Of a DNA stretch of 64,000 nucleotides, positions 2,461 through 64,000 are shown piece after piece. The notes below the pieces were generated by a model. It did not search any database and was not told where the DNA came from. It saw only the letters and a list, made by a program, of their open reading frames with translations. The first letter of the stretch is position 1. Every line of letters starts with the position of its first letter. The position numbers were made by a program, and so were the translations under genes. The DNA is taken from contig OX597837.1 of the NCBI GenBank assembly GCA_951406725.2, forward strand, positions 12,338,001 through 12,402,000. The letters are read 5' to 3'. Source of the stretch: Octopus vulgaris (taxonomy: Eukaryota).

Positions 2461-3912
2461 ATGTCGAAGTTGAACGAATTTGTCAGCCATTATGGTTCAT
2501 GTCGATGGCGGCTGTGCTATGTCAGCTTTTTCGCTTTGCTTCTCATGCAGACTTTACGTGTAGACCTGAGTATGTCGTTAGTTTGCATGTTAAAAACACC
2601 CAATCGTACAACTGATGAAGTCGACCTTACTCGAAATAACGAACACTGTTCTCGTTTAGACAATCGTACATCAAATGGAGAAAATTTTGAAGGAGAGTTC
2701 GAATGGGGCAATACTCTTCAATCAAACATGTTAGCTGGATACTATTATGGATACATTATTACTAATCTTCTTGGCGGTGTATTAGCTGACAAATATGGCG
2801 GAAAGAGAGTTATGGGGGCTTCCATATTCTCGGCTTCTCTCCTGACCATTCTTCACCCAAGTCTAACACGAATAAGTGGTTATTTCACTCTTGTATTAAG
2901 GATACTTACAGGTCTGGTTTCAGGGCCCATGTGCCCTGCTGTCTTATCTCTGTGGGGACGGTGGGCTCCGCCATTAGAAAACAGCGTGTTGGTTGCAGTC
3001 TCTTTCTCTGGTTTATTAATCGGTAGCATTCTGGGTTTGTCAATTTCCGGTTTCCTTTGCGTTTATGGCTTTGACAATGGATGGGGTTCTATATTTTATA
3101 TATTTGGGGGTATATCTTTGGTGTTTAGTTGTGTGTGGTTTTATGTCGTTTATGATACCCCAGATGTCCATCCGACTATCAGCGACAAAGAACGTTCCTA
3201 TTTAAACAAAACTATAATACACAAGGGCCAAGTGAAGAGCGTTCCATGGAAGAGAATCATGTGTACTCCCGCTGTTTGGGCTCTTATAATTGCTCACACA
3301 TTCTACAATTGGACGATTATTTCTTTCCAGCTGCTTCTGCCTTTGTATATGAAAGAAGCATTAAATATCGATACGAAATCAAATGGTTTAATGTCTTCAG
3401 CTCCGTTCATTGGACAGTTCGCGGCTGTGCAATTCTGTGGAAGGTTTGCAGATATTTTGCGTTCAAAGAATTATCTTTCAACGCGTTCTGTACGAGTTCT
3501 CTTCCAGAGTATTTGTTTCCTTGGCTCAGCATCACTGCTGATTGCCATAGGATTCCTTGACTGTGAACAAACAACCCTGGCCGGCATTCTGTTCCTCTTC
3601 ACGGGTATCTGCTTAGCATTTTACATTGGCGGCTTCAATGTCAACCACGTGGACATTGCTCCTAGATACGCTGGTGTATTGATCGGCATTACCAACACTT
3701 TTGGTTCATTACCCGGATTCTTGGCTCCATTATCATCCAAAGCTCTTACACCGAATGGGACACAAGAAGAATGGCAAATTGTCTTAGCTTTGTGTGCGGC
3801 ACTTTCTGTATTCGGAACGATAATGTTCGCGATATTGGCGAGTGGAGATGTACAGGAATGGGCAAAATCTCAAGAAATGCCAAATAGTTCTTCTAAAGCG
3901 GAAGAATCATAG
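2461..3912 (+). CDS. SLC17/sialin-like MFS anion transporter, paralog 1 (483 aa, intron-free CDS, most divergent copy)
   Basis: Uninterrupted ORF with LRVDLS, FEW, GYYYGY, GGVLADKYGGK, WGRWAPPLE, GWGSIFYIFG, VYDTPDVHPTIS, VPWKRI, NHVDIAPRYAG and EEWQIV, the SLC17 family motifs. Confidence 0.95.
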   Translation: MSKLNEFVSHYGSCRWRLCYVSFFALLLMQTLRVDLSMSLVCMLKTPNRTTDEVDLTRNNEHCSRLDNRTSNGENFEGEFEWGNTLQSNMLAGYYYGYIITNLLGGVLADKYGGKRVMGASIFSASLLTILHPSLTRISGYFTLVLRILTGLVSGPMCPAVLSLWGRWAPPLENSVLVAVSFSGLLIGSILGLSISGFLCVYGFDNGWGSIFYIFGGISLVFSCVWFYVVYDTPDVHPTISDKERSYLNKTIIHKGQVKSVPWKRIMCTPAVWALIIAHTFYNWTIISFQLLLPLYMKEALNIDTKSNGLMSSAPFIGQFAAVQFCGRFADILRSKNYLSTRSVRVLFQSICFLGSASLLIAIGFLDCEQTTLAGILFLFTGICLAFYIGGFNVNHVDIAPRYAGVLIGITNTFGSLPGFLAPLSSKALTPNGTQEEWQIVLALCAALSVFGTIMFAILASGDVQEWAKSQEMPNSSSKAEES

Positions 3913-6970: not shown

Positions 6971-7649
6971 TTGATATTACCAAACAGGAGAGAGAAGTTA
7001 TAACAAGTTTATCTTTTTATTATCATGGCCAATAATTGCTATTGTAAAATCATTGTTTTATAAACACTTCAGAATGAAACTTTCCATTCTCTTACATAAT
7101 CTGTATAATACACTTTCCAACCACTAGAATCGCTTTCTGTTTATATTTTCATTTAGCCTATTTCCTCTCCAGCTCATATTATAAGCTCCCAAATTTCCCT
7201 CGCTCTCCCACTATCCCTCCTCTATTTTTCGCTCATGCCAGTAGGCGTTTGATTTAGTATACGTTTAGATGCGTGTGTGTAAGTGTGCGCGTGTCTGTAA
7301 CTAATTACTAACTTGTGTGTACGTGTGTGTTTGTGTGTTTGTGTGCTAGTTCATGTGTCGATAATGTTAACAGAGCCCCGCCACGGTGAGTGTACATACG
7401 TCACCAAATGCAAAAAGCTACGATTAACAAACATATCAGATCTAGTAATCTGCGGTAACAGCTGGATTCTGCAAAACTGTAAACACTCGGCCAAACAGTA
7501 AGTATAAAAATGATTTACTTTTCAATTTTTAAGAAGCATGTACAACGTATTACCCTTCTGTTATGAATGCGTGGAGAACCTCTTCAGCATTATTACGTTA
7601 GCCGAAAAGAAATCCGAAGTCGGAATGCTTCGTTTCTCAGAACCAATGT

Positions 7650-9895
<2,246 letters not shown>

Positions 9896-11595: not shown

Positions 11596-14318
11596 TTGAC
11601 AGGGAATGACAGGGACCAACAGACAGACATAAAACCCAACACTAATATCAACAACACATATACCAGAAACAGGAACAATGAATATATCACTAGCGATGAT
11701 AGTAATAATGGCAATGGTAGGAATAAAGGTAATAACAATAATAGTGGTAGTAGTAGTGGTGGTGGTAACAGTAGAAGTAGTAATGAGGATAGTAGTGATA
11801 GTTGTGGTGGTAATAGGAATACTAGTAGTAGTAGTAGTAATGGTGATAATAATAATAGGAAGGCTGATGTTGGAAACAGTAACGATAATGAAGATAACCC
11901 TAGAAAGACCATTGACATGTATACCCATCCCTTTGACACTCAATTCTTCAACGTATGCGACAAAACTTACTGCATGAACCGAATTTATCAACAACATTAC
12001 CCTTCAACAAAAGGGTATACATCCCAAGACGTACTAATGACCACATGGAAGCACAGTTTACTATAGCTAGGACCAAACTTAGACAGATTTTAGGATTATA
12101 CATTAAGAGACAGAGACAGAATAAGACAGATGCCCAACAACTAGGATTAAACCTGCATGTGGCCTACAGAAGCTCATTCAGCGCACGAGGAACGGAGAGG
12201 TGATATGCCTTCCCACGGATAAGTCCGGCAGGATGTCAATAGACAGCTTACCGAACTACATCCAGGCAATGCAACCTCATATCGCCAATACAAAAATAAC
12301 AACTGTACAGGCGCATGAGGAGAGAGAAAAGGTCCTCAATGCCCACATGATGATATGGACAATTGTTGTGGGACCCCAGAAACGTACTGCAAAGAATTTC
12401 CAAGCCTGGAACAATGATATCCCGGTACTGTATGGACTTCGCAAGGACCATAAAGGTTTTTACTGACCCTATAGCAGGACCACCAACAAGACCAGTCTGT
12501 GGAGCGAATATCGCTAGCAATTACAGAATCTCCTACTTCCTCTCAATGATCATACGCCCTATAATCAGGATGTCACCTGATGTGTGTGACAGCACAGAAG
12601 ATCTCCTAAGCAGGATCAGTGACTGTAACAAAACTTGTGACTTGACAGGATGTATAGTAGGTAGCATGGATGTGGTATCCCTATACCCATCGATTGACGT
12701 GGATTTTGCAGTGGAGAAGTGCGTGGAGATGATCAACGAGAGCCAGGTGGAGTTCTGTAATGTCGACACAGAAGAACTGGGCCTCCTACTTAGACTGACA
12801 TATAATAGTGAATACTTAGATAAACATAATCTTAGTAGTTTCTGCCCCAGTAGAGGTTTAAGAGGTAGACCGCCTACAATTACTTCTATGGCTAGGAAGA
12901 CTCATATAGAAAGATGGCGCGGATGGACCAGAGCCATACGGAGCCCCGCAAATGTCCATCAGGTAAAGAAAATGATCGCACATGCACTAGTAGCTAGTAT
13001 AAGAGTTACCCTAAAAGGCCACACATTTAAATTTAATAATAAAATATATGCCCAGGACGAGGGGGCAGCCATCGGTGTTAGTATCGCTGGTGATGTGGCC
13101 AACATTTTCATGGTATGGTGGGACAGAAGGCTTAAAGAACGCCTACTGCAGAAATCCATACTCGTAAACATGTACTCTCGCTATGTTGATGATATCAACA
13201 TAGTAGTAAAGGCACCCCCACAAGAGAGTAATGTTGATATAGTAATAGAAACTAATACTATGGAGAGCATCCAGCAAATAGCTAACTCCATCCACCAGAG
13301 TATTAAAGTCACAATAGACTACCCCACTAAACACCCCAACCATAGACTACCAGTACTAGACACTGAACTCTGGCTAGAAATTGTGAAAAATAAAACCCAA
13401 ATCCTTCATTCATACTATGCAAAACCTATGGCCTCAAAATACCTGATCCACCGGAACTCAGCCATTGCGGGCAATGCCAAATTCAATATTTTGATGGCAG
13501 ACCTCGTCAGAATAATGAGAAATGTGTCACGCATGTGCGAGCCTACAGAATTAAAGAGACACATACAGTATTTCATTCACCGCATGCAGTTCTCAGGTTA
13601 CAGCCATAAAGAAAGGATCAGAGTATACAAAGGAGCCATGAAGAAATTTGATAATATATTATGTAATGATAGGAATGGTATTTGCCCACTCTATAGGAAC
13701 AAGTCATGGAACACTATAGAAAGGACAAAAAAGAAAATAGGGAAGGCCAACTCTTGGTATGATAGCCATAAATACCAGAGTGTCATGTTCGTTGACACCA
13801 CCCCTGGAGGTGAACTAGCGTACCGCTTTAGAAGGACCCTAGATAAACTTAAACTAAGAATTAAGGTTGTTGAAAAGCCAGGCAACCCTATCAAATCTAT
13901 AATTGGTAGAAGCTATCCTTTTAGTAGAACCCTCTGTACGGATAACTATTGCACCGTATGTAGATTTAGCCCACAAACAAACTGTAAAGCCAGAAATGTA
14001 GTCTATAGTATAAGATGTATAGAGGGACGATGCAGTAACAAGACAATAACATACGTAGGGGAAACGGCAAGAAGCATAGGAGAGCGGGTGAATGTACATT
14101 GGAGACAGCTCAAGGAAGGTAAAAGCTCATCGATTCTGTACCAACACGCCGAACAGGAACACGGGGGATCAATCAATAACATAGAGATTAAGATATTGTC
14201 CACACATAGAACAGATGCAACAATTAGACAAATTACAGAAGCTACACATATTATAGAAAATAAACCTAGCCTGAATAGAAAACTAGAATGGAGCAATAGC
14301 ACACACCACAACATATGA
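11596..14318 (+). mobile_element. Penelope-like retroelement (Naiad-like): RT plus C-terminal GIY-YIG endonuclease; N-terminus broken by at least 2 frameshifts
   Basis: Fragments read LPFNKRVYIP, GLQKLIQRTRNGEVICLPTDKSGR and PVLYGLRKDHK. An open frame then carries GPPTRPV, GSMDVVSLYPSID, GAAIG, YSRYVDD, LPVLD, YYAKPMAS, CTDNYCTVC and NVVYSIRC...YVGETARSIGER. Confidence 0.9.
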
Positions 14319-19090: not shown

Positions 19091-20056
<966 letters not shown>

Positions 20057-21520
20057 ATGTCTCGATTTACGAATTGTATTCAGCGCTATTGCTCGTGTCG
20101 ATGGAGATTATGCTATATTTGTGCAATAGCTTCTCTTGTTATGCAAACATTAAGAGTCGATATAAGTATGGCGTTTGTTTGTATGTTGAAAACCCCGAAT
20201 CGTACAAGCGAAGAAGTTAACGTTACTACAGACAACCAACATTGTTCCGGATTCGATAACCGTTCAATGATCGAAAACTATGAAGGGGAGTTTGAATGGA
20301 GCGACACGTTACAATCAAACATACTGGCCGGATACTTCTATGGATATATAGCAACTAATTATTTGGGTGGTTTATTGGCCGATAAATACGGTGCGAAAAG
20401 AGTTGTCGGAGGTTCAATACTCTCAGCATCCATTCTGACCATTCTTCATCCAAGTTTGTCTCGAATTAGTGGTTACTTGACCCTCGTTCTAAGGATATTA
20501 ACAGGTATGGCATCAGGATCAATATACCCGGCGTTTCAATCCCTATATGGACGTTGGGCGCCTCCGCAAGAAATTGGTTCGTTGGTTGGGCTTACATTCG
20601 CTGGTCTGTATTTAGGTAATATTGTAGGACTTTCAATATCAGGTTATCTTTGTCTTTATGGATTTGACAATGGATGGGGTTCTATATTCTATGTATTCGG
20701 TGGATTATCGTTGGTGTTTAGTTGTGTGTGGTTTTATGTTGTTTATGATACTCCAGATGGCCATCCAACCATTAGCGAAAAAGAACGTTCTTATTTAAAC
20801 AAAACTATAATAAGTAAAAAAGTGGTGAAAAATGTACCATGGAGACGACTCCTTTCTTCGCCTGCAGTTTGGGCCATTAGCATTGGCTGGTTTGCTAAAA
20901 GTTGGACTGGTTTGTCTTTCCAGGTGTTGCTACCCCTTTATATGAAAGAAGCCTTAAACGTTAATACGACCTCTAACGGTTTAATGTCATCTGCTCCTTC
21001 GGTCGGACTGATCATTGCACTACCACTGTGCGGGAACCTGGCTGATTTTATACGTTTAAAGAAATATATGTCAACTCGTTGTGTTCGCGTTTTATTCCAA
21101 ACCGTTTCTCTGATTGCTTCAGCATGTCTGTTGATAGTCATAGGATTCCTCAGATGTGACCAAACCATTCTAATAACTATCTTATTGTTTCTCATTGGTA
21201 TAACTCTATCATTTTCCAGTGGTGGTGTTATCGTCAACAACAATGATATTGCTCCAAGTTATGCTGGAATTATATTTGGAATTGCAAATACAATCGCAGC
21301 AACCTCGGGAAGTATTTCTCCTTTATCTGCAAAAGCTCTCACCCCAAACGGTACACAAGAAGAATGGCAGATCGTGTTTGCTTTGTGTGCTGCTATATGT
21401 GTTGTTGGTACAATATTATATGCAATATTAGCAAGAGGAGAAATTCAAGATTGGGCGATTTCAGAAGACCCTGGGCCATCTGTTCCCCTTAATGACATGA
21501 ACACAAATGAATCGGCTTAA
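20057..21520 (+). CDS. SLC17/sialin-like transporter, paralog 2 (487 aa)
   Basis: Intact single-exon ORF, colinear with paralog 1. Confidence 0.95.
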   Translation: MSRFTNCIQRYCSCRWRLCYICAIASLVMQTLRVDISMAFVCMLKTPNRTSEEVNVTTDNQHCSGFDNRSMIENYEGEFEWSDTLQSNILAGYFYGYIATNYLGGLLADKYGAKRVVGGSILSASILTILHPSLSRISGYLTLVLRILTGMASGSIYPAFQSLYGRWAPPQEIGSLVGLTFAGLYLGNIVGLSISGYLCLYGFDNGWGSIFYVFGGLSLVFSCVWFYVVYDTPDGHPTISEKERSYLNKTIISKKVVKNVPWRRLLSSPAVWAISIGWFAKSWTGLSFQVLLPLYMKEALNVNTTSNGLMSSAPSVGLIIALPLCGNLADFIRLKKYMSTRCVRVLFQTVSLIASACLLIVIGFLRCDQTILITILLFLIGITLSFSSGGVIVNNNDIAPSYAGIIFGIANTIAATSGSISPLSAKALTPNGTQEEWQIVFALCAAICVVGTILYAILARGEIQDWAISEDPGPSVPLNDMNTNESA

Positions 21521-24050: not shown

Positions 24051-25950
24051 TCAGAGAAACAGTACTTTACTCAATATCAGTGCAGTTCCAAGTAATGCCA
24101 TTTTTTTCAATACACTTAGATTGTAAGCTATTTCTAATGTTTTCAGATGTTTTCTTAGGTTGGGTGGTTTTGAACCCAATGCTCCGATGACAATAGGGAC
24201 AACCTTTATGTTTTTCTCTCGCAGCTGCCACATCTTGACAATCTCAATTCTCAAGTCTCTATATTTATCAATCTTTTCTCTTTCATGATAGTGTGTTGAT
24301 CTCCTGCCACTGCTACGTCGATTATTAGGTATTCTTGTTTGTCCCTCCTAAAGATTACTATATCCGGCCTTCGGTGATCTAACACGTTGTCTGTCTGGAA
24401 GTCAAAGTCCCTGAGGATTTTTGCCTTCCCCTTTTCGCTCATTACCTTTCCCGGTGTATGTTTGTACTAAGCACCCTTTTACCTCGCATCCATACTTCCG
24501 GCATGGTAGTCGGGGAAGATTTTGGGGCTACCTTGTTGTGTCTGCGCTTGTACTCTTTCTGCGCAAGACCTTCACAAGCACTAATAATGTGAGACATGCT
24601 TTCGAATCGTCTTCCCGCACATTCTGCAGAGGTTCGTTGCATTTGTCTGGTATATATCCCTTTTCACTGAGTTCGTGTTCAATGTCTGGTCCTGGGTGGC
24701 CATGATTAGGCTTTTTCAGTATTCTTTTTTAGGTCAACCTTGCCGAGTCACCTCCATGATGCTTCATGTTCTTTTAAGTTGTTAGTTTCACGGTGGAACT
24801 GACCATGTAATTCCATGCCTAGTAGATTTCCTTCTTTCTCGTTGGCTATTCCTGATCGGAATTCACAAGAACTCTCAAGTTCATTTTTGGTAAATCCGTC
24901 TACATCATCCGCATACTGTAGCAGGTCACGTTTGCTGTTTACAAAATATTTTGCCATGTTTCTGATTTCACTCTTAATGCACCTCCATACGCTAGTCAGC
25001 CCACATCCACTTTTACACGTGTTCATGTGAAGCCTGTGTACGTTCGCCTTAGGGTGGAGGGTACCATATATTGTTATGTAAAGGCGGCGAGCTAGCAGAA
25101 ACGTTAGCACGCCGGGCGAAATGCTTTGCGGTATTTCGTCTGCCATTACGTTCTGAGTTCCAATTCCGCCGAGGTCGACTTTGCCTTTCATCCTTTTGGG
25201 GTCGATTAGATAAAGTACCAGTTTCTCACTGGGGTCGATGTCATCGGCTTAATCCGTTTGACTGTCCTTGTTTGTCCCCTCTATGTTTAGCCCCTTGTGG
25301 GTAGTAGAGAAATATATATTGTTATGGTCTTTCGTGTAGTGCAATCGAATTGGTTAATCTCCGCTTGTGTCCATTTCAGGATGGGTGCTCTGTAACACAC
25401 TTCAGCAACAGCCCATGTGTTGGTAGCAGTCACAAGGTTCCTTGAGTTGAGTTTTTATTTCAAGAGAAGTTTGAGGCGCTTCAAATATTCAATGATTATC
25501 TTGCCTTTCATTTCTCTGAGCAAGATAGTGTCTAACTCCAGGATCCCAAGACGTGTGGACGCATTCAGAACGCCTGATATGTTCCTCCCTGTTGGCCACC
25601 GTTTCGCAGTGTCCGTTGCTGTCCATATCACGTCTTACATCCTTAAAAGTGTCCACAGATCATTGAGCAGCAGTCATGATGCCAGCATTTTGATTACTCG
25701 GCGCGAGTCCTCATAATACAGGTAACTCTTTTCTATTATTCAGACGGTTTCCAGTCCTCCATGTCAGCTTATAATGTTTTTTATCAACTACAAATTTTAT
25801 GTTTGTTCTCTCCAACACCGTTGACTGTTTATCAGGATATAATTCCGTTCCTGAAAAGAACAAAACAGATACAAACAATCGTCAAAATTAATTCGCACGT
25901 CCTGTACATTTTAGAATTATTTTTTCACGTGTTTTCGGTTGCTATTGATT
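24051..25950 (-). mobile_element. Degenerate R4/Dong-clade LINE with restriction-like endonuclease, interrupted by a SINE at 25082-25312
   Basis: Fragments read LHPKANVHRL..GCGL, LHGQFHRE, ESMSHIISACEGLAQKEYKRRHNKVA, DFDFQTDNVLDHRRPDIV..LIIDVAV and KVVPIVIGALG. Confidence 0.8.
25082..25312 (+). mobile_element. tRNA-derived SINE, family A, full length
   Basis: aggcggcgagctagcagaaacgttagcacgccgggcgaaatgc..., nested in the LINE. Confidence 0.85.
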
Positions 25951-28434: not shown

Positions 28435-29898
28435 ATGTCTAAATTTACCAGCTGGATTAAGCGTTATTATTCTTGCCGATGGAGATTATGTTATGCCTCT
28501 ACTGCAGCATTTCTCGTTATGCAAACATTGAGAGTTGATCTAAGCATGGCATTTGTGTGTATGTTGAAAACGCCCAATCGTACAAACGAGGAAGTTAACA
28601 TTACTGCAAACAACCAAGAATGTTCCGGTTCAGGTAATCATTCAATAAATCAAAATTTTAAAGGAGAATTCGAATGGAGCGATACGTTACAATCGAACAT
28701 GCTGGCTGGGTACTTCTATGGATACGTAATAACAAACATTCTAGGTGGTATATTGGCTGATAAATACGGTGGGAAAAGAGTTGTTGCAGGTGCAATAATT
28801 TCAGCAGGCATTCTTACCATTCTTCATCCATGTTTAACTCGAATTAGTGGTTACATTACGCTTGTTTTCAGAATATTAACAGGTTTGTTATCAGGACCGA
28901 TAGTCCCAGCAATTCAGTCCTTATATGGCCGTTGGGCGCCTCCGCAAGAAATTAGTTTATTGGTTGGGCTTACATTTGCAGGTCAGATTCTAGGCAATAT
29001 TGTAGGACTTTCAATATCAGGTTTTCTTTGTGTTTATGGATTTGATAATGGATGGGGTTCTATATTCTATGTATTCGGTGTATTATCGTTGGTGTTTAGT
29101 TGTGTGTGGCTTTATGTTGTTTATGACACTCCAGATGACCATCCAACCATTAGCGAAAAAGAACTCTCTTATTTAAACAGAACAATAATAAGTAAAAATG
29201 TAGTTAAAACAGTGCCATGGAAACGACTCCTTTCTTCACCTGCAGTTTGGGCCATTTGCATTGCTTGGTTTGCTCATAGCTGGACTGATTTGTCTTTCCA
29301 GGTGTTGCTCCCTCTCTATATGAAAGAAGCCTTAAACGTTAATACAACCTCCAACGGTTTAATGTCATCTGCTCCTTCGGTCGGACAAATCATTGCCCTT
29401 CCCCTGTGCGGGAAATTGGCTGATTTTATACGTTTAAAGAAATACATGTCAACTCGTTCTGTTCGAGTTTTATTCCAGACCTTCGCGCTGATTGCTTCAG
29501 CATGTCTGTTGATTGCCGTAGGATTCCTCAGATGCGACCAAACCATTCCAATAATTATGCTCCTGTTTCTCATTGGTATAACTCTGTCATTTTCCAGTGG
29601 TGGTGTTATCGTCAACAACAATGATATTGCTCCAAGTTATGCCGGGATTGTATTTGGCATTGCTAATTCTTTCGCAACAACGTCTGGTGGTATCAGTTCC
29701 TTAACTACAAAAGCTCTCACCCCAAACGGTACACAACAAGAATGGCAGATTGTGTTGGCCTTGTGTGCCGCTATATGTGTAGTCGGTGCAATATTGTACG
29801 CAATATTGGCAAAGGGAGAAACCGAAAAGTGGGCGATTCCGAAAGACTTAGCTTTATCTGTTCCTCTGAACGATATAAACACAAATAAAACGGTTTAA
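28435..29898 (+). CDS. SLC17/sialin-like transporter, paralog 3 (487 aa)
   Basis: Intact single-exon ORF, with putative acceptor ttttcag at 28380. Confidence 0.95.
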   Translation: MSKFTSWIKRYYSCRWRLCYASTAAFLVMQTLRVDLSMAFVCMLKTPNRTNEEVNITANNQECSGSGNHSINQNFKGEFEWSDTLQSNMLAGYFYGYVITNILGGILADKYGGKRVVAGAIISAGILTILHPCLTRISGYITLVFRILTGLLSGPIVPAIQSLYGRWAPPQEISLLVGLTFAGQILGNIVGLSISGFLCVYGFDNGWGSIFYVFGVLSLVFSCVWLYVVYDTPDDHPTISEKELSYLNRTIISKNVVKTVPWKRLLSSPAVWAICIAWFAHSWTDLSFQVLLPLYMKEALNVNTTSNGLMSSAPSVGQIIALPLCGKLADFIRLKKYMSTRSVRVLFQTFALIASACLLIAVGFLRCDQTIPIIMLLFLIGITLSFSSGGVIVNNNDIAPSYAGIVFGIANSFATTSGGISSLTTKALTPNGTQQEWQIVLALCAAICVVGAILYAILAKGETEKWAIPKDLALSVPLNDINTNKTV

Positions 29899-39236: not shown

Positions 39237-40699
39237 ATGTCTCGATTTACTTATCGCATTCAGCGTTGTTACTCGTGTCGATGGAGGTTATGTTATATTT
39301 GTGCAATAGCTTCTCTTGTTGTGCAAACATTAAGAGTCGATATAAGTATGGCGTTTGTTTGTATGTTGAAAACCCCGAATCGTACAAGCGAAGAAGTTAA
39401 CGTTACTACAAACAACCAACATTGTTCCGGATTCGATAACCGTTCAATGATCGAAAACTATGAAGGAGAGTTTGAATGGAGCGACACGTTACAATCAAAC
39501 ATACTGGCTGGATACTTCTATGGATATATAGCAACTAATTATTTGGGTGGTTTATTGGCCAATAAATTTGGTGCGAAAAGAGTTGTCGGAGGTTCAATAT
39601 TCTCAGCATCCATTCTGACCATTCTTCACCCAAGTCTGTCTCGAATTAGTGGTTACTTGACCCTCGTTCTAAGGATATTAACAGGTATGGCATCAGGGCC
39701 AATATACCCAGGAATTCATTCTTTATATGGACGTTGGGCGCCTCCGCAAGAAATTGGTTCGTTGGTTGGGCTTACATTTTCTGGTCTAAATTTAGGCAAT
39801 ATTGTAGGACTTTCAACATCAGGTTATCTTTGCGTTTATGGCTTTGATAATGGGTGGGGTTCTATATTCTATCTATTTGGTGGATTATCATTGGTGTTTA
39901 GTTGTGTGTGGTTTTATATTGTCTACGATACTCCAGATGCCCATCCAACCATTAGCGACAAAGAACTTTCTTATTTAAACAGCACAATAATAAGTGAAAA
40001 GGTGGTGAAAAAGTACCTTGGAAAAGACTAATTTCTTCTCCCGCTGTATGGGCCATTAGCATTGGTCGGTTTGCTCATAGTTGGACTAGTTTAACTTTCG
40101 AGGTTTTGCTCCCTCTTTATATGAATGAAGCCTTGAACGTTAATACAACCTCCAACGGTTTAATGTCATCTGCTCCTTCGGTTGGACAAATCATTGCACT
40201 ACCTCTGTGCGGGAACTTGGCTGATTTTATACGTTTAAAGAAATATATGTCAACTCGTTGTGTTCGCGTGTTATTCCAAACCTTTGCGCTGATTGCTTCA
40301 GCATGTCTGTTGATAGCCACAGGCTTCCTCACATGTAACCAAACTGTTCTAATAACTATCTTATTGTTTCTCATTGGTATAACTCTATCATTTTCCAGTG
40401 GTGGTGTTATCGTCAACAACAATGATATTGCCCCAAGTTATTCTGGAATTATATTTGGAATTGCAAACACTTTCGCAACAACTTCGGGAAGTATTTCTCC
40501 TTTATCTGCCAAAGCTTTCACCCCAAACGGTACACAAGAAGAATGGCAGATCGTGTTTGCCTTAAATGCTACTGTATGTGTAGTTAGCACAATATTATAT
40601 GCAATATTAGCCAGAGGAGAAATTCAAGATTGGGCGATTTCGGAAGACTCTGGATCACCTGTTCACCTTGACGACATGAACACAAATAAATCGGTTTAA
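39237..40699 (+). pseudogene. SLC17/sialin-like paralog 4 with a 1-nt frameshift (pseudogene or assembly error)
   Basis: 1463 nt versus 1464 in intact copies. The A-run at 40008-40012 has 5 A, where paralog 5 has 6 (gtg aaa aaa gta). Both halves are otherwise open. Confidence 0.85.
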
Positions 40700-42608: not shown

Positions 42609-43907
42609 TCAGGTCATCCCAAAAGTTCTTTCCAATTTTACCTTTTTAAAATTGAATGAAATTTAATACTATTTTTGAATATCCAGTGGAATTAAAATTT
42701 ATTTTTTATGCATTTTGTGTACATTTAAACTAATTAAATATTATTTTACAGAATAACAGAATTAAAATTTCTTTGATTAAAACCCTTTCTAACATGGAAG
42801 TATCCAAAGAGCATTTAAGGCACATAATGCTTTATGACTACAAAAAAGGAAACTCTGCAGCCGAAGTGACTCGAAACATACACTCAGTTTATGGGAAAGA
42901 ATGCTTGAATGAAAGAACTTGCAGAAGATGGTTTGCAAAGTTCAGAAGTGGAGATTTCAGCCTTGAAGATGAACATCGAACAGGACGTCCAGTTGAGTTT
43001 GATGAGGCATTACTTGAAGAAAATCCTTGAGGCATTACTTGAAGAAAATCCTGCATTATCACTTGAAGAATTGGCAATAAAGCTTAGTTCAAACCACACA
43101 ACTGTTCATCGTCATCTTCCACAACTTGGAAAGTCTCCTAAACTTGAAAAATGTGTGCCTCATGAATTGTTCGAAAGCAACCGCAAATCCCGAGTTGATA
43201 TCTGCTCTTCTCCCCATTTTCGCGAACTCAGTTCACCCTTTTTCGATAGACTTATGACTGGTGACGAAAAATGGATCTTATATTGGAATGCTAAACGTTG
43301 TAAACTGTGGCTTGGTAAAAGGGAAAAAGCCCAACCGCAACTGAGAAGGCAAGTTCATGGGAAAAAGGTTCTTCTCTCTATCTGGTGAAATTGCAAAGGA
43401 GTAATTCACTTTGAATTGTTACCACCTAATGCAACAATCAATGTTCAAGTCTACTGTCAGCAATTAGAGAGTTTGAACAAAGCTTTGAAGAAAAAAACTC
43501 GCTTTAGTGAATCAAAAAGGAGTGATGTTTCATCAGGACAATGCGTGACCCCACACCGCAAAGATCACATCACAGAAGATTGAAGAACTTAGTTGGGAAA
43601 AATTCCTCATCCACGTTATTCTCCAGACTTTGCTCCTTCAGACTACCATTTGTTTCGTAGTTTACAGAATCATTTGGGGGACATAACTTTCGCAAGCCAG
43701 GAGGAGGTCGAAACTGGCATTTCAGAGTTCTTCACTTTGAAACCAAAAGAGTTTTACATTGATGGGATTAATAAGCTTGTAAATAAATGGAAGGAAATCA
43801 TAGATTATCAGGGAAAGTAGATTGATGATTAAATTTCAATTAAATATAACATTTGATCACCTGTTTTCTTTATTCAAAATTCAAACAGAACTTGTGGGAT
43901 GACCTGA
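42609..43907 (+). mobile_element. Full-length (1299 bp) inactive mariner transposon
   Basis: TIRs tcaggtcatccca.aag / ctt.tgggatgacctga with TA on both sides. The transposase starts at ATG 42794 with an HTH and carries MTGDEKW, HQDNA*PH and HPRYSPDFAPSDYHLF. A 25-bp internal tandem duplication at about 43003-43052 and stop codons disrupt it. Confidence 0.93.
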
Positions 43908-48198: not shown

Positions 48199-49662
48199 AT
48201 GTCTCGATTTACAAATTGCGTTCAGCGCTATTGCTCGTGTCGATGGAAATTATGTTATATTTGTGCAATGGCTTCTGTTTTGGTGCAAACATTAAGAATT
48301 GATATAAGTATGGCGTTTGTTTGTATGTTGAAAACCCCGAATCGTACAAGCGAAGAAGTTAACGTTACTACAGACAACCAGCATTGTTCCGGATTCGATA
48401 ACCGTTCAATGATCGAAAAATATGAAGGAGAGTTTGAATGGAGCGACACGTTACAAGCAAACATACTGGCTGGTTTCTTCTATGGATATATAACAACTAA
48501 TTCTTTGGGTGGCTTATTGGCCGATAAATACGGTGCGAAAAGAGTTGTCGGAGGTTCAATATTCTCAGCATCCATTCTAACCATTCTTCACCCAAGTCTG
48601 TCTCGAATTAGTGGTTACTTGACCCTCGTCCTAAGGATATTAACAGGTATGGCATCAGGACCAATATACCCAGGAATTCATTCTTTATATGGACGTTGGG
48701 CGCCTCCACAAGAAATTGGTTCGTTGGTTGGGCTTACTTTTGCTGGTCTAAATTTAGGCAATATTGTAGGACTTTCAATATCCGGTTATCTTTGCGTTTA
48801 TGGCTTTGATAATGGGTGGGGTTCTATATTCTATGTATTCGGTGGATTATCGTTGGTGTTTAGTTGTGTGTGGTTTTATATTGTCTACGATACTCCAGAT
48901 GCCCATCCAACCATTAGCGACAAAGAACATTCTTTTTTAAACAGAACAATAATAAGTGAAAAGGTGGTGAAAAAAGTACCTTGGAAAAGACTAATTTCTT
49001 CTCCCGCTGTATGGGCCATTAGCATTGGTCGGTTTGGTCTTAGTTGGACTGCTTTGACTTTCCAGCTGCTGCTACCTCTGTATATGAAAGAAGCCTTAAG
49101 CGTTAATACAACCTCCAACGGTTTAATGTCATCTGCTTCTTCGGTTGGACAAATCATTGCACTACCCCTGTGCGGCAAGTTAGCTGATTTTGTACGTCTA
49201 AAGAAATACATATCAACTCGTTGTGTTCGCATTTTATTCCAAAGCATTGCCCTGATTCCTTCAGCATGTCTGATGATTGTCATAGGATTCCTCAGATGTG
49301 ACCAAACCATTCTAATAACTATCTTATTGTTTCTCATTGGTATAACTCTATCATTTTCCAGTGGTGGTGCTACCGTCAACAACAACGACATTGCCCCAAG
49401 TTATGCTGGTATTATATTTGGAATTGCAAACACTTTCGCAACAACTTCGGGAAGTATTTCTCCCTTATCTGCCAAAGCTTTAACCCCAAACGGTACACAA
49501 GATGAATGGCAGATCGTGTTTGCCTTAAGTGCTGCTGTATGTGTAGTTAGCACAATATTATATGCAATACTAGCAAGAGGAGAAATTCAAGATTGGGCGA
49601 TTTCGGAAGACCCTGGGGTATCTGTTCCCCTTAAAGACATGAACACAAATGAATCGGCTTAA
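48199..49662 (+). CDS. SLC17/sialin-like transporter, paralog 5 (487 aa from the ATG at 48199)
   Basis: Intact ORF. The track's extra 44 aa start at a TTG and are not conserved across paralogs. Confidence 0.95.
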   Translation: MSRFTNCVQRYCSCRWKLCYICAMASVLVQTLRIDISMAFVCMLKTPNRTSEEVNVTTDNQHCSGFDNRSMIEKYEGEFEWSDTLQANILAGFFYGYITTNSLGGLLADKYGAKRVVGGSIFSASILTILHPSLSRISGYLTLVLRILTGMASGPIYPGIHSLYGRWAPPQEIGSLVGLTFAGLNLGNIVGLSISGYLCVYGFDNGWGSIFYVFGGLSLVFSCVWFYIVYDTPDAHPTISDKEHSFLNRTIISEKVVKKVPWKRLISSPAVWAISIGRFGLSWTALTFQLLLPLYMKEALSVNTTSNGLMSSASSVGQIIALPLCGKLADFVRLKKYISTRCVRILFQSIALIPSACLMIVIGFLRCDQTILITILLFLIGITLSFSSGGATVNNNDIAPSYAGIIFGIANTFATTSGSISPLSAKALTPNGTQDEWQIVFALSAAVCVVSTILYAILARGEIQDWAISEDPGVSVPLKDMNTNESA

Positions 49663-59150: not shown

Positions 59151-61712
59151 CAAGCAGACAAATTTTAAAAAATGCAGAATGCTCAAATGAAAGAAAATTT
59201 TCATAAAATGAGAAAATGAGAAAATATATAAATATATATTTATTCAAACCGGTTTTCGTCATTGTTTGACTTGTCAAGAATATTTATGTTAAAAAAGTTT
59301 TTTAAAAATTAGAAAGGGGAAAAAGAGAAAATTGCATTGTTTTTTGTAAAAGAATAATAATAAGAATGTACAAAAATTAAAAAATGAGTACTCCGATACA
59401 TTGTGAGTTCGTTGTGTATCTTGAGTTTAATGATTGTTCACGAAAAAATTACCTTGAGGTGTTAAGATCCAATGGGATTAAGAGCATGTGTTGTTTGGTT
59501 TAATTCAGGATGTTGGCAGAACAGGAAGTAGTAGTAATTGTGGTTCTTCAGTTCCTGTGTTGTGAGTAAGGGGAGACAACTCTTTTGAGTTCTTCAATAA
59601 AGGCTGTTGGTAAAACCCAAATTATAAAATTATCATTTGCGTTAACTTTTTTATATAATTGTTTGTTAACTTAACTTTCAGATTTTAACACTTTATTTAT
59701 ATTATTTTCTAATTATATAAATCTGCATAGACAATTGCATTTCAGATTGTCATATCATTTATAATAAAAATGATAGTAATAACAACAATAGTAAAAATGA
59801 TATTTAAAGAATATAAGTTTTAGCTTGTAGTGATGAATGCATGGTATCTTTATATATTTGTGTTAGTCCATCCATGAAGAGTGAGGTAGAAAAAGGAAGT
59901 TTGATCAACGAGGAGTTTGCATATTAAGTTGTGTTTGGAATTTTTCAATAAAGAGATTCTCCTTGTTAATTCTCTCTTGTGTGGTGATCCCGTCTTTACA
60001 TTGGTAGAAGGGGAATATATAGAATTTGGGGTTTAAGTCTTTAGCACATGAGTCTAAGTGGTCACTCAGTGGAATTTGTCGGTATTCCGGGAGATTTATT
60101 TATTCTTTATGCACCGTTACTCGTTTACGTAACGGGAGACTCGTTTGTCCAACATAATTATGTTGGCAACCAGCGCATGTGAGAACGTAGATAAGGTTCT
60201 CGGAGGAACAGGAGAAGTTAGTCTTGATTTTAAACTTCGTACCTTGTTTGAAGGTAAATTCAGAGCCTTCAAGTAGAAAGGGGCAGGTACCACAGTTTGA
60301 GCGTGCACATTTTTTTACTGTTGGGGGTGGATGTGGTGTATGAAGTTTGGCATTTGTCAAGAGTCTTTTTAAAGATTTGTGTTGCCTTTTACATTTGAGG
60401 ATTTTGTGTGTATTTATAATGTTTTTCATTTTTGGGTCTGTTGACAGTAGACTGAGGTTTTGTATGATTGTGGTGTATGCTTCGATATTTTTGGGGTTGT
60501 GGGTGGAAATGTATGGAAGTATTCTGAGGTTGTGTGTGGTGTTAGGTTGGGTGGTTTTCAGTGTAGTGTTATCTAGTTCTTTGGCGCGTTTTATTCCATA
60601 CTCTATAAGGGTGGAGGGATATTGACGTTGTAATAGTGTTTTTTTGAGGTCTTGAAGGCGTATTTCTCGTGTTTTTGGATCCGAGACAATGGTGCATACC
60701 CTTTTAGCTAAATTGAAAGGGATATTTGTCTTGGTGTGTTTTGGGTGGCATGAACTAAAGAGGAGGTATTGTTGTGAGTCTGTAGGTTTGTGGTAGATGT
60801 CTGTTATGATTTGGTTCTTAGGTGTTTTTATAATTAGGAGATCAAGGAATGGGAGATGATGTTCGCTTAATTCCATAGTGAATTGGATGTTGGGATGTAT
60901 GTTGTTTAGTATGGTTTTGAATTCCAGGAGTTTTTCATAAGGTTCTTTCCATATGATGAAACAATCATCTAAATACCTTTTCCAGTTTTCCATTAGGTAG
61001 GTGTGGAAAACATGTCCAAATTTCTGGCTTGATATTTCATAGAGTGACAGTTCGCAAGGACTGGTGCAGCCTTGGTACCCATCGCAATACCACATTTTTG
61101 ACGGTAGTGTGTGTCGTCGAACAGAAAAAAATTGTTTGTCAGAATGAACTTGAGAGATTCTGTAATAAAAGACTTGTTGATGCGGTCAGGGAATGTCTCT
61201 GGGTGTTTTCGCAAATGAAGCTAAAATGATAATTTTATAATTTGGGTTTTACCAACAGCCTTTATTGAAGAACTCAAAAGAGTTGTCTCCCCTTACTCAC
61301 AACACAGGAACTGAAGAACAACAATTACTACTACTTCCTGTTCTGCCAACATCCTGAATTAAACCAAACAACACATGCTCTTAATCCCATTGGATCCTAA
61401 TACCTCAAGGTAATTTTTTCGTGAACAATCATTAAACTCAAGATACACAACGAACTCACAATGTATCGGAGTACTCAATTTTTAATTTTTGTACATTCTT
61501 ATTATTATTCTTTTGCAAAAACCAATGCAATTTTCTCTTTTTCCCCTTTCTAATTTTTAAAAAACTTTTTTAACATAAATATTCTTGACAAGTCATACAA
61601 TGACGAAAACCGGTTGAATAAATATATATTTATATATTTTCTCATTTTCTCATTTTATAAAAATTTTCTTTCATTTGAGCATTCTGCATTTTTTAAAAAA
61701 ATTGTCCTTGCT
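59149..61712 (-). mobile_element. 5'-truncated Penelope-like element (Neptune-like) with ~490-bp inverted termini
   Basis: ORF remnant 61214-59905 reads YRQKCGIAMGTKAAP, WKRYLDDCF, LPFLD, YHKPTD, CARSNCGTC and ENLIYVLTC..YVGQT. There is an internal deletion or frameshift near 61050 and a premature stop at 60100. Segments 59149-59638 and 61224-61712 are reverse complements. Confidence 0.92.
59241..59282 (-). ncRNA. Hammerhead ribozyme with U3-A8 core in the PLE terminal repeat (inverted copy at 61580-61620, plus strand)
   Basis: Reverse complement: tattc-TTGACAA-gtca-aacaa-tgac-GAAA-accggt-TT-gaata. The plus-strand copy lacks one T at the cleavage site. Confidence 0.75.
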
Positions 61713-62687: not shown

Positions 62688-64000
62688 ATGTCTCGATTTA
62701 CTAATTGCGTTCAGCGCTATTGCTCGTGTCGATGGAGATTATGCTATATTTGTGCAATGGCTTCTGTTTTGGTGCAAACATTAAGAGTCGATATAAGTAT
62801 GGCGTTTGTTTGTATGTTGAAAACCCCGAATCGTACAAGCGAAGAAGTTAACGTTACTACAGACAACCAACATTGTTCCGGATTCGATAACCGTTCAATG
62901 ATCGAAAACTATGAAGGAGAGCTTGAATGGAGCGACACGTTACAATCAAACACACTGGCTGGTTTCTTCTATGGATATATAGCAACTAATTATTTGGGTG
63001 GTTTATTGGCCGATAAATATGGTGCGAAAAGAGTTGTCGGAGGTTCAATACTCTCAGCATCCATTCTGACCATTCTTCACCCAAGTCTGTCTCGAATTAG
63101 TGGTTACTTGACCCTCGTTCTAAGGATATTAACAGGTATGGCATCAGGACCAATATACCCGGCGTTTCAATCCTTATATGGACGTTGGGCGCCTCCGCAA
63201 GAAATTGGTGCGTTGGTTGGGCTTACTTTTGCTGGTCTGTTTCTGGGTAATATTGTAGGTCTTTCAATATCAGGTTATCTTTGTCTTTATGGATTTGACA
63301 ATGGATGGGGTTCTATATTTTATATATTTGGTGGATTATCGTTGGTGTTTAGTTGTGTATGGTTTTATGTTGTGTACGATACTCCTGATGACCATCCAAC
63401 CATTAGCGACAAAGAACTTTCTTATTTAAACAGAATTATAACAAGTAAAAAAGTGGTGAAAAATGTACCATGGAGACGGCTGATTTCTTCGCCTGCAGTT
63501 TGGGCCATTAGCATTGGCTGGTTTGCCCATTGTTGGACTGCTTTCTCTTTCCAGGTGTTGCTACCCCTTTATATGAAAGAAGCCTTAAACGTTAATACAA
63601 CCTCTAATGGTTTAATGTCATCTGCTCCTTCGGTCGGACTGATCATTGCACTACCACTGTGCGGGAACTTGGCTGATTTTGTACGTTTAAAGAAATACAT
63701 ATCAACTCGTTGTGTTCGCGTTTTATTCCAAAGCATTGCCCTGATTCCTTCAGCATGTCTGTTGATAGTCATAGGATTCCTCAGATGTGACCAAACCATT
63801 CTAATAACTATCTTATTGTTTCTCATTGGTATAACTCTATCATTTTCCAGTGGTGGTGTTATCGTCAACAACAATGACATTGCCCCAAGTTATTCTGGTA
63901 TTATATTTGGAATTGCAACTACTTTCGCTACGGCTTCGGGATGTATTTGTCCCTTATCTGCAAAAGCTTTAGCCCCAAACGGTACACAAGAAGAATGGCA
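62688..64000 (+). CDS. SLC17/sialin-like transporter, paralog 6 (partial, runs off the window; absent from the ORF track)
   Basis: ATG at 62688 (MSRFTNCVQRYCSCRW). The distance to ..GTQEEW is 1313 nt, identical to paralog 2, so there is no net indel. Confidence 0.93.
   Translation, partial: MSRFTNCVQRYCSCRWRLCYICAMASVLVQTLRVDISMAFVCMLKTPNRTSEEVNVTTDNQHCSGFDNRSMIENYEGELEWSDTLQSNTLAGFFYGYIATNYLGGLLADKYGAKRVVGGSILSASILTILHPSLSRISGYLTLVLRILTGMASGPIYPAFQSLYGRWAPPQEIGALVGLTFAGLFLGNIVGLSISGYLCLYGFDNGWGSIFYIFGGLSLVFSCVWFYVVYDTPDDHPTISDKELSYLNRIITSKKVVKNVPWRRLISSPAVWAISIGWFAHCWTAFSFQVLLPLYMKEALNVNTTSNGLMSSAPSVGLIIALPLCGNLADFVRLKKYISTRCVRVLFQSIALIPSACLLIVIGFLRCDQTILITILLFLIGITLSFSSGGVIVNNNDIAPSYSGIIFGIATTFATASGCICPLSAKALAPNGTQEEW

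Follow-up and report, generated by a model that had tools for sequence, protein, structure and literature searches.

An active question about the SLC17 family is how moving a handful of charged residues converts one mode of action into another, among H+ symport, H+ activation and voltage-driven uniport. Sialin is defined by two TM4 glutamates, E171 and E175. Either mutation, E171Q or E175Q, lowers sialin transport in insect cells by about 95% (PMC9858498), and double mutants lose more than 60%, with up to about 40% kept, in HEK cells (PMC11116495). Sialin transports NAAG and glutamate whether the pH is 5.6 or 7.5, and in its lumen-open state the cytosolic side is sealed by the pairs R195-Q273, S196-R353 and K197-D350 (PMC11116495). 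Sialin N59 and T153 line a lumen-accessible tunnel together with R168 (PMC9858498). In the bacterial transporter DgoT, residues N49, T110, Q113 and T129 line a buried N-lobe pocket beside D46, R126 and E133 (Leano et al., PMC6532931). Simulations of DgoT show R126 shifting from D46 to N49 as the outer gate opens, and N49 contacts R126 in the open state (PMC11649914). For VGLUT2, residue H128 has been proposed to be part of an allosteric H+ site (PMC9858498). The mammalian NPT1-4 proteins have no TM4 glutamate, show no dependence on low pH and reside in the plasma membrane (PMC6532931); a preprint puts their lack of proton sites down to Na+ dependence and not to uniport (bioRxiv 10.64898/2026.05.20.726482).

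The window, the whole 64-kb stretch of Octopus vulgaris DNA analysed here, contains six SLC17 open reading frames, all single-exon and all on the plus strand. Copy 1 (2461..3912; 483 aa; motifs LRVDLS, RILTGLVSG and PPLEN) and copy 2 (20057..21520; 487 aa; LRVDIS, RILTGMASG and PPQEI) are intact intronless coding sequences. Also intact are copy 3 (28435..29898; LRVDLS, RILTGLLSG and PPQEI), copy 5 (48199..49662; LRIDIS, RILTGMASG and PPQEI) and copy 6 (62688..64000; motifs as in copy 2), the end of which lies just beyond the window. Copy 4 (39237..40699; motifs again as in copy 2) carries a single-base frameshift within a run of A near 40010 and is either a pseudogene or a homopolymer assembly error. 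Traces of mobile elements are also found. Two retroelement frames, at 12354-14318 (plus strand; a weak reverse-transcriptase match, E 3.5e-4, below the Pfam cut-off) and 60100-61185 (minus strand; no Pfam match), are by eye presumably Penelope-like. A transposase fragment with weak Transposase_1 and HTH matches lies at 42909-43388 (plus strand), and a LINE fragment with a zf-RVT match (E 2e-8) at 8599-9246 (plus strand).

The six copies are part of a much larger array. A search of the octopus genome against itself yielded at least 79 matches, most of them within 12.29-12.83 Mb of the contig designated C24, which carries the window. Fifty loci were fetched, and 33 of these have an intact full-length frame (32 on C24 and one on C20); with copy 1 of the window the intact set is 34, two members of which are identical. 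At least 16 further fetched array loci, beyond copy 4, are broken or partial, which is a birth-and-death pattern. Copy 1 represents an older branch and retains the equivalents of sialin H298, Y301 and N302. The single intact copy on the other chromosome-scale contig (L034, G000:C20:45752200-45754400) is likewise intronless, nests in the array clade and has a counterpart in another octopus species. An octopus "sialin" expansion has already been reported (Albertin et al., 2015, as cited in an excerpt of the review PMC6110919), and it is very likely the same expansion.

The sister group of the array contains an 11-exon gene on contig C3 that already has D59, H153, T171 and S175 (sialin numbering). 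Since these four residues are present in the multi-exon parent gene, they predate the array. Retroposition of the 11-exon parent followed by tandem duplication would be the simplest account of its origin. A sister parent-type group (P0047, P0123 and P0124) reads Gly59 and Tyr153 with Ser at both TM4 sites. Other multi-exon SLC17 genes are also present in the genome (L052-L055 and L056); L056, at 30.62 Mb of C24 (G000), reads RVAQGFFE and keeps the glutamate at 175, as VGLUTs do.

That the copies are SLC17 proteins is clear from several properties. Pfam reports MFS_1 (E 1.3e-44) and otherwise only Sugar_tr. An AlphaFold2 model of copy 2, built on a 74-sequence alignment, has the 12-helix MFS fold of the family with a mean pLDDT of 85.3; its best fold match is sialin 8u3f (TM-score 0.85), and VGLUT2 is also among the top matches. 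The model is nearer to lumen-open sialin; no weight is placed on this, as AlphaFold predicts an outward-facing form for sialin too (PMC9858498). Among named proteins, those of Octopus and Argonauta are the nearest. The TM1 and TM4 arginines expected of the family are present, and R168 is found in 34/34 and R57 in 32/34 intact array copies (Lys in the other two), in keeping with the initial annotation, which stated that both anion-binding arginines are kept.

Alignment of copy 2 to human sialin (8dwi_A, E 1.4e-94) gives R33 = R57, D35 = N59, R146 = R168, T149 = E171, S153 = E175, E172 = E194 and I173 = R195. The sialin numbering in the initial annotation is thus right, and VGLUT2 TM4 reads RILQGLVEG in the same alignment, again as stated there. 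In copy 2 (plus strand) the TM1 triplet R33-V34-D35 (DgoT R47 and N49 at its ends) lies at 20153..20161. H131 of TM3 (sialin T153, DgoT Q113) is at 20447..20449. The TM4 residues span 20492..20515, with codons for R146 at 20492, T149 at 20501 and S153 at 20513 (DgoT R126, T129 and E133). The sequence PPQEIGS at the start of TM5, in which I173 and S175 stand in for sialin R195 and K197 of the cytosolic seal, is at 20561..20581, and the TM7 pocket residues 278-286 (sialin H298-Y306) are at 20888..20914. The interval 20480..20580, to which the earlier observations on TM1, TM4 and PPxER had been assigned, runs from TM4 to PPQEI of copy 2, and the TM1 Asp lies outside it, at 20159-20161. The observations themselves hold in the alignment: 6/6 window copies have Thr and Ser at the sites of E171 and E175, Asp at the site of N59, and no R195, PPxER having become PPLEN or PPQEI. 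Sialin numbering is used below unless copy 2 residues are named.

The absence of TM4 acids extends to the whole array and far beyond. Site 171 is Thr in 34/34 intact copies and site 175 is Ser in 32 and Leu in two, so that no copy has an acid at either position. Among the non-cephalopod matches P0051-P0091, the tuna sialin omitted (n = 40), Glu171 occurs in 0/40 and Glu175 in 1/40. Two homologue searches gave 150 rows, and 79 of 89 complete non-cephalopod ones have no acid at 171 or 175; a 50%-cluster search gave 202 rows, and 73 of the 107 complete ones have none. These counts include only rows without a gap at eight scored sites, and seven proteins are common to both sets. A FastTree phylogeny of 190 of 194 proteins (400-700 aa), from which NPT, VNUT and vertebrate VGLUT are absent, shows a 166-member clade with support 1.0; bivalves, gastropods, a chiton, cephalopods, nemerteans, Seison and a planarian are among its named members. 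Within this clade 165/166 proteins have no acid at either TM4 site, the exception being P0066, and outside it 21/24 rows have one. The cephalopod group nests inside this mollusc/nemertean/flatworm SLC17 clade; fish sialins are sister to the whole of it, on a 0.02 branch, in the same tree without NPT, VNUT and vertebrate VGLUT.

Loss of the TM4 glutamates is thus an old and common state among the invertebrate relatives and has a precedent in NPT1-4; as a headline it is ordinary, and it adds little to what those proteins already display. The initial annotation had proposed a rewired or absent H+ coupling mechanism in the clade of the six paralogs. The proposal is partly supported: sialin-type H+ coupling is likely absent from the array proteins with E171 and E175 replaced, but the loss is not peculiar to them, since nearly all members of the wider clade share it. 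Its main use is as a caution that molluscan "sialin-like" labels carry no implication of sialin function.

These labels, together with the fact that sialin is the closest solved structure and the partial activity of the sialin double mutants in HEK cells (PMC11116495), are the points in favour of viewing the copies as ordinary lysosomal sialic acid/H+ symporters in which the substitutions are neutral. This is hardly credible. E171, E175, Y54, R195 and K197 are all replaced, H298, N302, F305 and Y306 are widely variable, and the clade is separate from fish sialins in the FastTree phylogeny. An acidic dileucine motif is absent from the first 20 and last 35 residues in 34/34 copies, and a different SLC17 of the same genome, L056, keeps the 175 glutamate. 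Sialic acid is probably not the substrate.

The more distinctive features are two residues of the N-lobe, one of which, His153, had escaped the initial annotation. Asp59 is found in 33/34 intact copies, with Asn in the remaining one, and its pooled omega of 0.03 (0.01-0.16; D35 in copy 2) indicates strong constraint. Site 153 is His in 28/34 copies and Tyr in 6/34, with the Tyr on several branches and an omega of 0.3. Outside the cephalopods His153 occurs in 0/196 rows, and D59 recurs in 9/196, all without a TM4 acid. The two together are found in 29/43 complete cephalopod rows and in 0/196 others. Strict covariation of the pair is ruled out by the other combinations among the 43 rows (DY 6, NH 1 and DC 1). 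Nor is Asp59 supported as a general compensation for the lost glutamates, the association with TM4-acid absence outside cephalopods (9/152 vs 0/44) being non-significant at p = 0.21. When 326 helix positions were screened for ionisable residues frequent in the array yet scarce among 54 other mollusc proteins, D35 and H131 proved to be present also in 5/5 parent-type proteins, and K426 in 3/5; the screen was made after the His had been noticed and is descriptive, not an independent test.

When aligned to DgoT of E. coli K-12 (with an offset of 15 to the numbering of the papers), D35, T128, H131 and T149 of copy 2 fall on N49, T110, Q113 and T129, the four residues of the buried pocket (PMC6532931). 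This alignment rules out an equivalence of Asp59 to D46 of DgoT, as Asp59 occupies the N49 position. The Asp59/His153 combination is particular to cephalopods and is predicted, from these alignments, to lie in the same buried pocket as the proton sites of DgoT and sialin. It is a natural variant that places an acid at a third position of that pocket.

This raises the question of whether the pair is a regained proton site, in a lineage long without TM4 glutamates, that provides VGLUT-like allosteric pH sensing or DgoT-like H+ symport. The TM1 acid is one helical turn from D46 of DgoT. The correspondence with all four DgoT pocket residues, the tunnel that sialin N59 and T153 line with R168 (PMC9858498) and the exchange of R126 between D46 and N49 in DgoT (PMC11649914) are consistent with such a role, as are the low omega at D59 and the confinement of the pair to cephalopods. 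In addition, two of the four rows in which residue 59 has reverted to Asn carry Gln153, which is the DgoT pair. Against it, R57 no longer has an acid that could latch it, and in DgoT and sialin this latching is what ties H+ to substrate, E133Q and E175Q being nearly dead (PMC6532931; PMC9858498). The replacement of His by Tyr in 6/34 copies speaks against an essential proton site, D59 itself is lost in one of the 34 copies and is Gly in the three sister parent-type proteins noted above, and the association with TM4-acid absence is non-significant. A regained proton site is the main rival explanation and a serious one, albeit unlikely.

A second possibility is that Asp59 and nearby Thr/Ser hydroxyls form a site for Na+ or another cation, and that the proteins are cation-coupled anion or phosphate transporters. 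Some SLC17 proteins can act as Na+/phosphate symporters (PMC11649914), the preprint cited above calls NPTs sodium-dependent, and T171 is invariant (34/34, omega 0.01). R168 in the same pocket would nevertheless be expected to oppose a cation, and Thr occupies the 171 site in the H+ symporter DgoT as well; a cation site appears quite improbable. The genome provides its own controls in the one Asn59 copy, the six Tyr153 copies and a parent with an intact gate, and a role of the pocket is thus directly testable.

The cytosolic gate distinguishes the array from its parent group. Arg or Lys at 195 is found in 4/34 array copies vs 8/8 parent-group proteins. Lys or Arg at 197 is found in 0/34 vs 8/8, and in 108/119 other proteins; the loss of K197 is also absent from the initial annotation. 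As the parent group keeps both residues, loss of R195 and K197 is specific to the array. The former K197 site evolves neutrally (omega 1.2, 0.7-1.5). Its partner D350 is kept in 33/34 copies, E194 is also kept, and a Lys or Arg has been gained three residues before D350 (site 327) in 29/34.

Array-specific loss of these seal residues is one of the observations that might point to transceptors or leak-like anion channels, by which a variety of small anions would be bound, signalled or conducted instead of carried. Another is the make-up of the family, which is large, intronless and arranged in tandem, and in which the ligand pocket varies while the scaffold is conserved, the pattern of chemoreceptor families. 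Such functions are doubtful here, in that D350 and E194 are kept, the termini are short, Pfam detects no signalling domain (MFS_1 and Sugar_tr only) and positive selection is not detected.

The array as a whole is under purifying selection (omega 0.25), with R168, T171 and D59 near zero. Variation is concentrated in the putative substrate pocket, of which the TM7 segment is highly variable between copies. Fourteen pocket sites were taken from two sialin papers (PMC11116495; PMC9858498), the alignment having been seen before the test was chosen. Mean omega at these sites is 0.55, compared with 0.26 at 298 other helix sites (p = 3e-4). In the array, entropy is 1.74 at pocket sites as opposed to 0.87 at other helix sites (p = 7e-4); in the 54 other mollusc proteins the two values are 1.33 and 1.40 (p = 0.73). 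The pocket sites are thus among the most variable in the array, unlike in other molluscs (rank shift p = 0.002). Models of positive selection, run with our own script with branch lengths scaled from the nucleotide tree and gene conversion left out, show no gain of M2a over M1a, and M8a is at least as good as M8; M7 vs M8 alone gives p = 0.002 with an omega of 1.24. With positive selection not detected, new specificities and relaxed constraint in the pocket are indistinguishable. In two copies, L020 and L021, R57 is replaced by Lys and further lysines occupy pocket sites 298 and 302, which suggests a different, more anionic ligand. At site 285 (sialin F305, TM7) Asp is found in 13/34 copies (L004-L012 and others), a new acid facing the substrate cavity that might provide another site for protonation or for a cation.

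Assembled transcripts show that spliced RNA crosses the locus. The 3' end of an upstream exon, exon A (7468..7497, plus strand), has a single genome match and is followed by GTAAGT. Exon B (19247..19478, plus strand), upstream of copy 2, is flanked by AG and GTAAGT. The A-B junction, from the donor at 7497 to the AG acceptor at 19246, is found in contigs of three runs from three studies. A junction of exon B to exon C, from the donor at 19479 to the acceptor at 25379 (exon C begins at 25380), occurs in one run, with two mismatches at the contig end, and skips the copy 2 coding sequence. A possible antisense retroelement remnant at 24748-25716, with no Pfam match, overlaps exon C. Relatives of exon B are located ahead of copies 4, 5 and 6 and at six further places in the array. 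Portions of copy 2 are represented in contigs of four runs; as these also include intron sequence at low depth, they do not demonstrate a copy 2 mRNA. Exons A, B and C could reflect either a non-coding transcript or a promoter that several copies share, each as an alternative last exon.

The residues and their distribution over the phylogeny are observed, as are the parent gene, the purifying selection and the variability of the pocket. We infer with moderate confidence that the array proteins are NPT-like, voltage- or gradient-driven organic-anion carriers with diversified substrates. Among the uniporter, channel-like and transceptor options put forward initially, uniport is the best-supported prediction. 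The proteins would be plasma-membrane carriers driven by voltage or the substrate gradient, without protons, as in mammalian NPT1-4. R57 and R168 would still bind carboxylate, and with no TM4 acid to latch R57, substrate could bind without a protonation step. Within the N-lobe pocket Asp59, aided by His or Tyr153, likely balances R168 as a fixed counter-charge. With R195 and the K197-D350 bridge gone, the cytosolic seal would be looser, and the new Lys/Arg three residues before D350 likely takes over the K197 charge. Different copies likely handle different anions.

Several considerations weigh against NPT-like carriers. D35 and H131, in the pocket of the DgoT and sialin proton sites, fit a regained pH site at least as well, the preprint cited above explains the NPTs themselves by Na+ dependence, and pocket variation without positive selection may be relaxed constraint. 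A broader scenario can also be drawn, and it is a speculative one that we rate as unlikely: both TM4 glutamates were lost before mollusc diversification, cephalopods re-invented a proton site with Asp59 and His153 beside R168, and an octopod retrocopy with a looser gate gave rise to dozens of pocket-varied copies, a repertoire of pH-gated anion carriers or sensors that possibly share a promoter with alternative last exons.

A literature search, mostly of open-access papers, found no study of these residues in octopus, cephalopod or mollusc sialin/SLC17 proteins, none in the literature on characterised invertebrate or glutamate-less SLC17s, no characterised H+-coupled invertebrate SLC17 with these substitutions, and no transport, voltage or pH data on these octopus proteins. 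A sialin transcript receives a brief mention in one squid paper. Asp59 and His153 offer a handle on an octopus gene-family expansion for which the search found no functional study.

Compared with known systems, the array resembles NPT1-4 (SLC17A1-4) as an SLC17 group without a TM4 glutamate, a likeness drawn from the published description of the NPTs. The NPT1-4 genes also form a duplicated cluster. Human sialin (SLC17A5) is the closest solved structure, at 35% identity, and R57, R168, Y119, E194, N430 and D350 are kept in most array copies. The array differs from it in having Thr for E171, Ser for E175, Asp for N59, His for T153, Gln for Y54, Asn for Q123 and Gln for L309, by loss of R195 and K197, by the variable pocket and the absence of a detectable N-terminal dileucine motif, and by being intronless and multi-copy. 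The other members of the mollusc/spiralian "sialin-like" clade have also lost both TM4 acids, but mostly keep N59, R195, K/R197, N302 and Y306 and never have His153.

VGLUT2 (SLC17A6) has no acid at 171, as in the array, but keeps E191, and its H128 aligns to sialin L112; His153 is therefore a different site. Neither of these residues characteristic of VGLUTs (SLC17A6-8) is found in the array, where 175 is Ser or Leu and 112 is Leu in 34/34 copies. E. coli DgoT shares with the array a single TM1 acid, Thr at the 171 site and both arginines. Its acid, D46, precedes the Arg, whereas that of the array is three residues later, and Q113 is replaced by His. The two-proton arrangement of DgoT is also missing, the D46 site being L, M or F and the E133 site S or L in 34/34 copies. 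Accordingly, the array proteins belong to SLC17 without having the defining residues of sialin, VGLUT or DgoT, and the Asp59/His153 combination is the narrower, testable new element.
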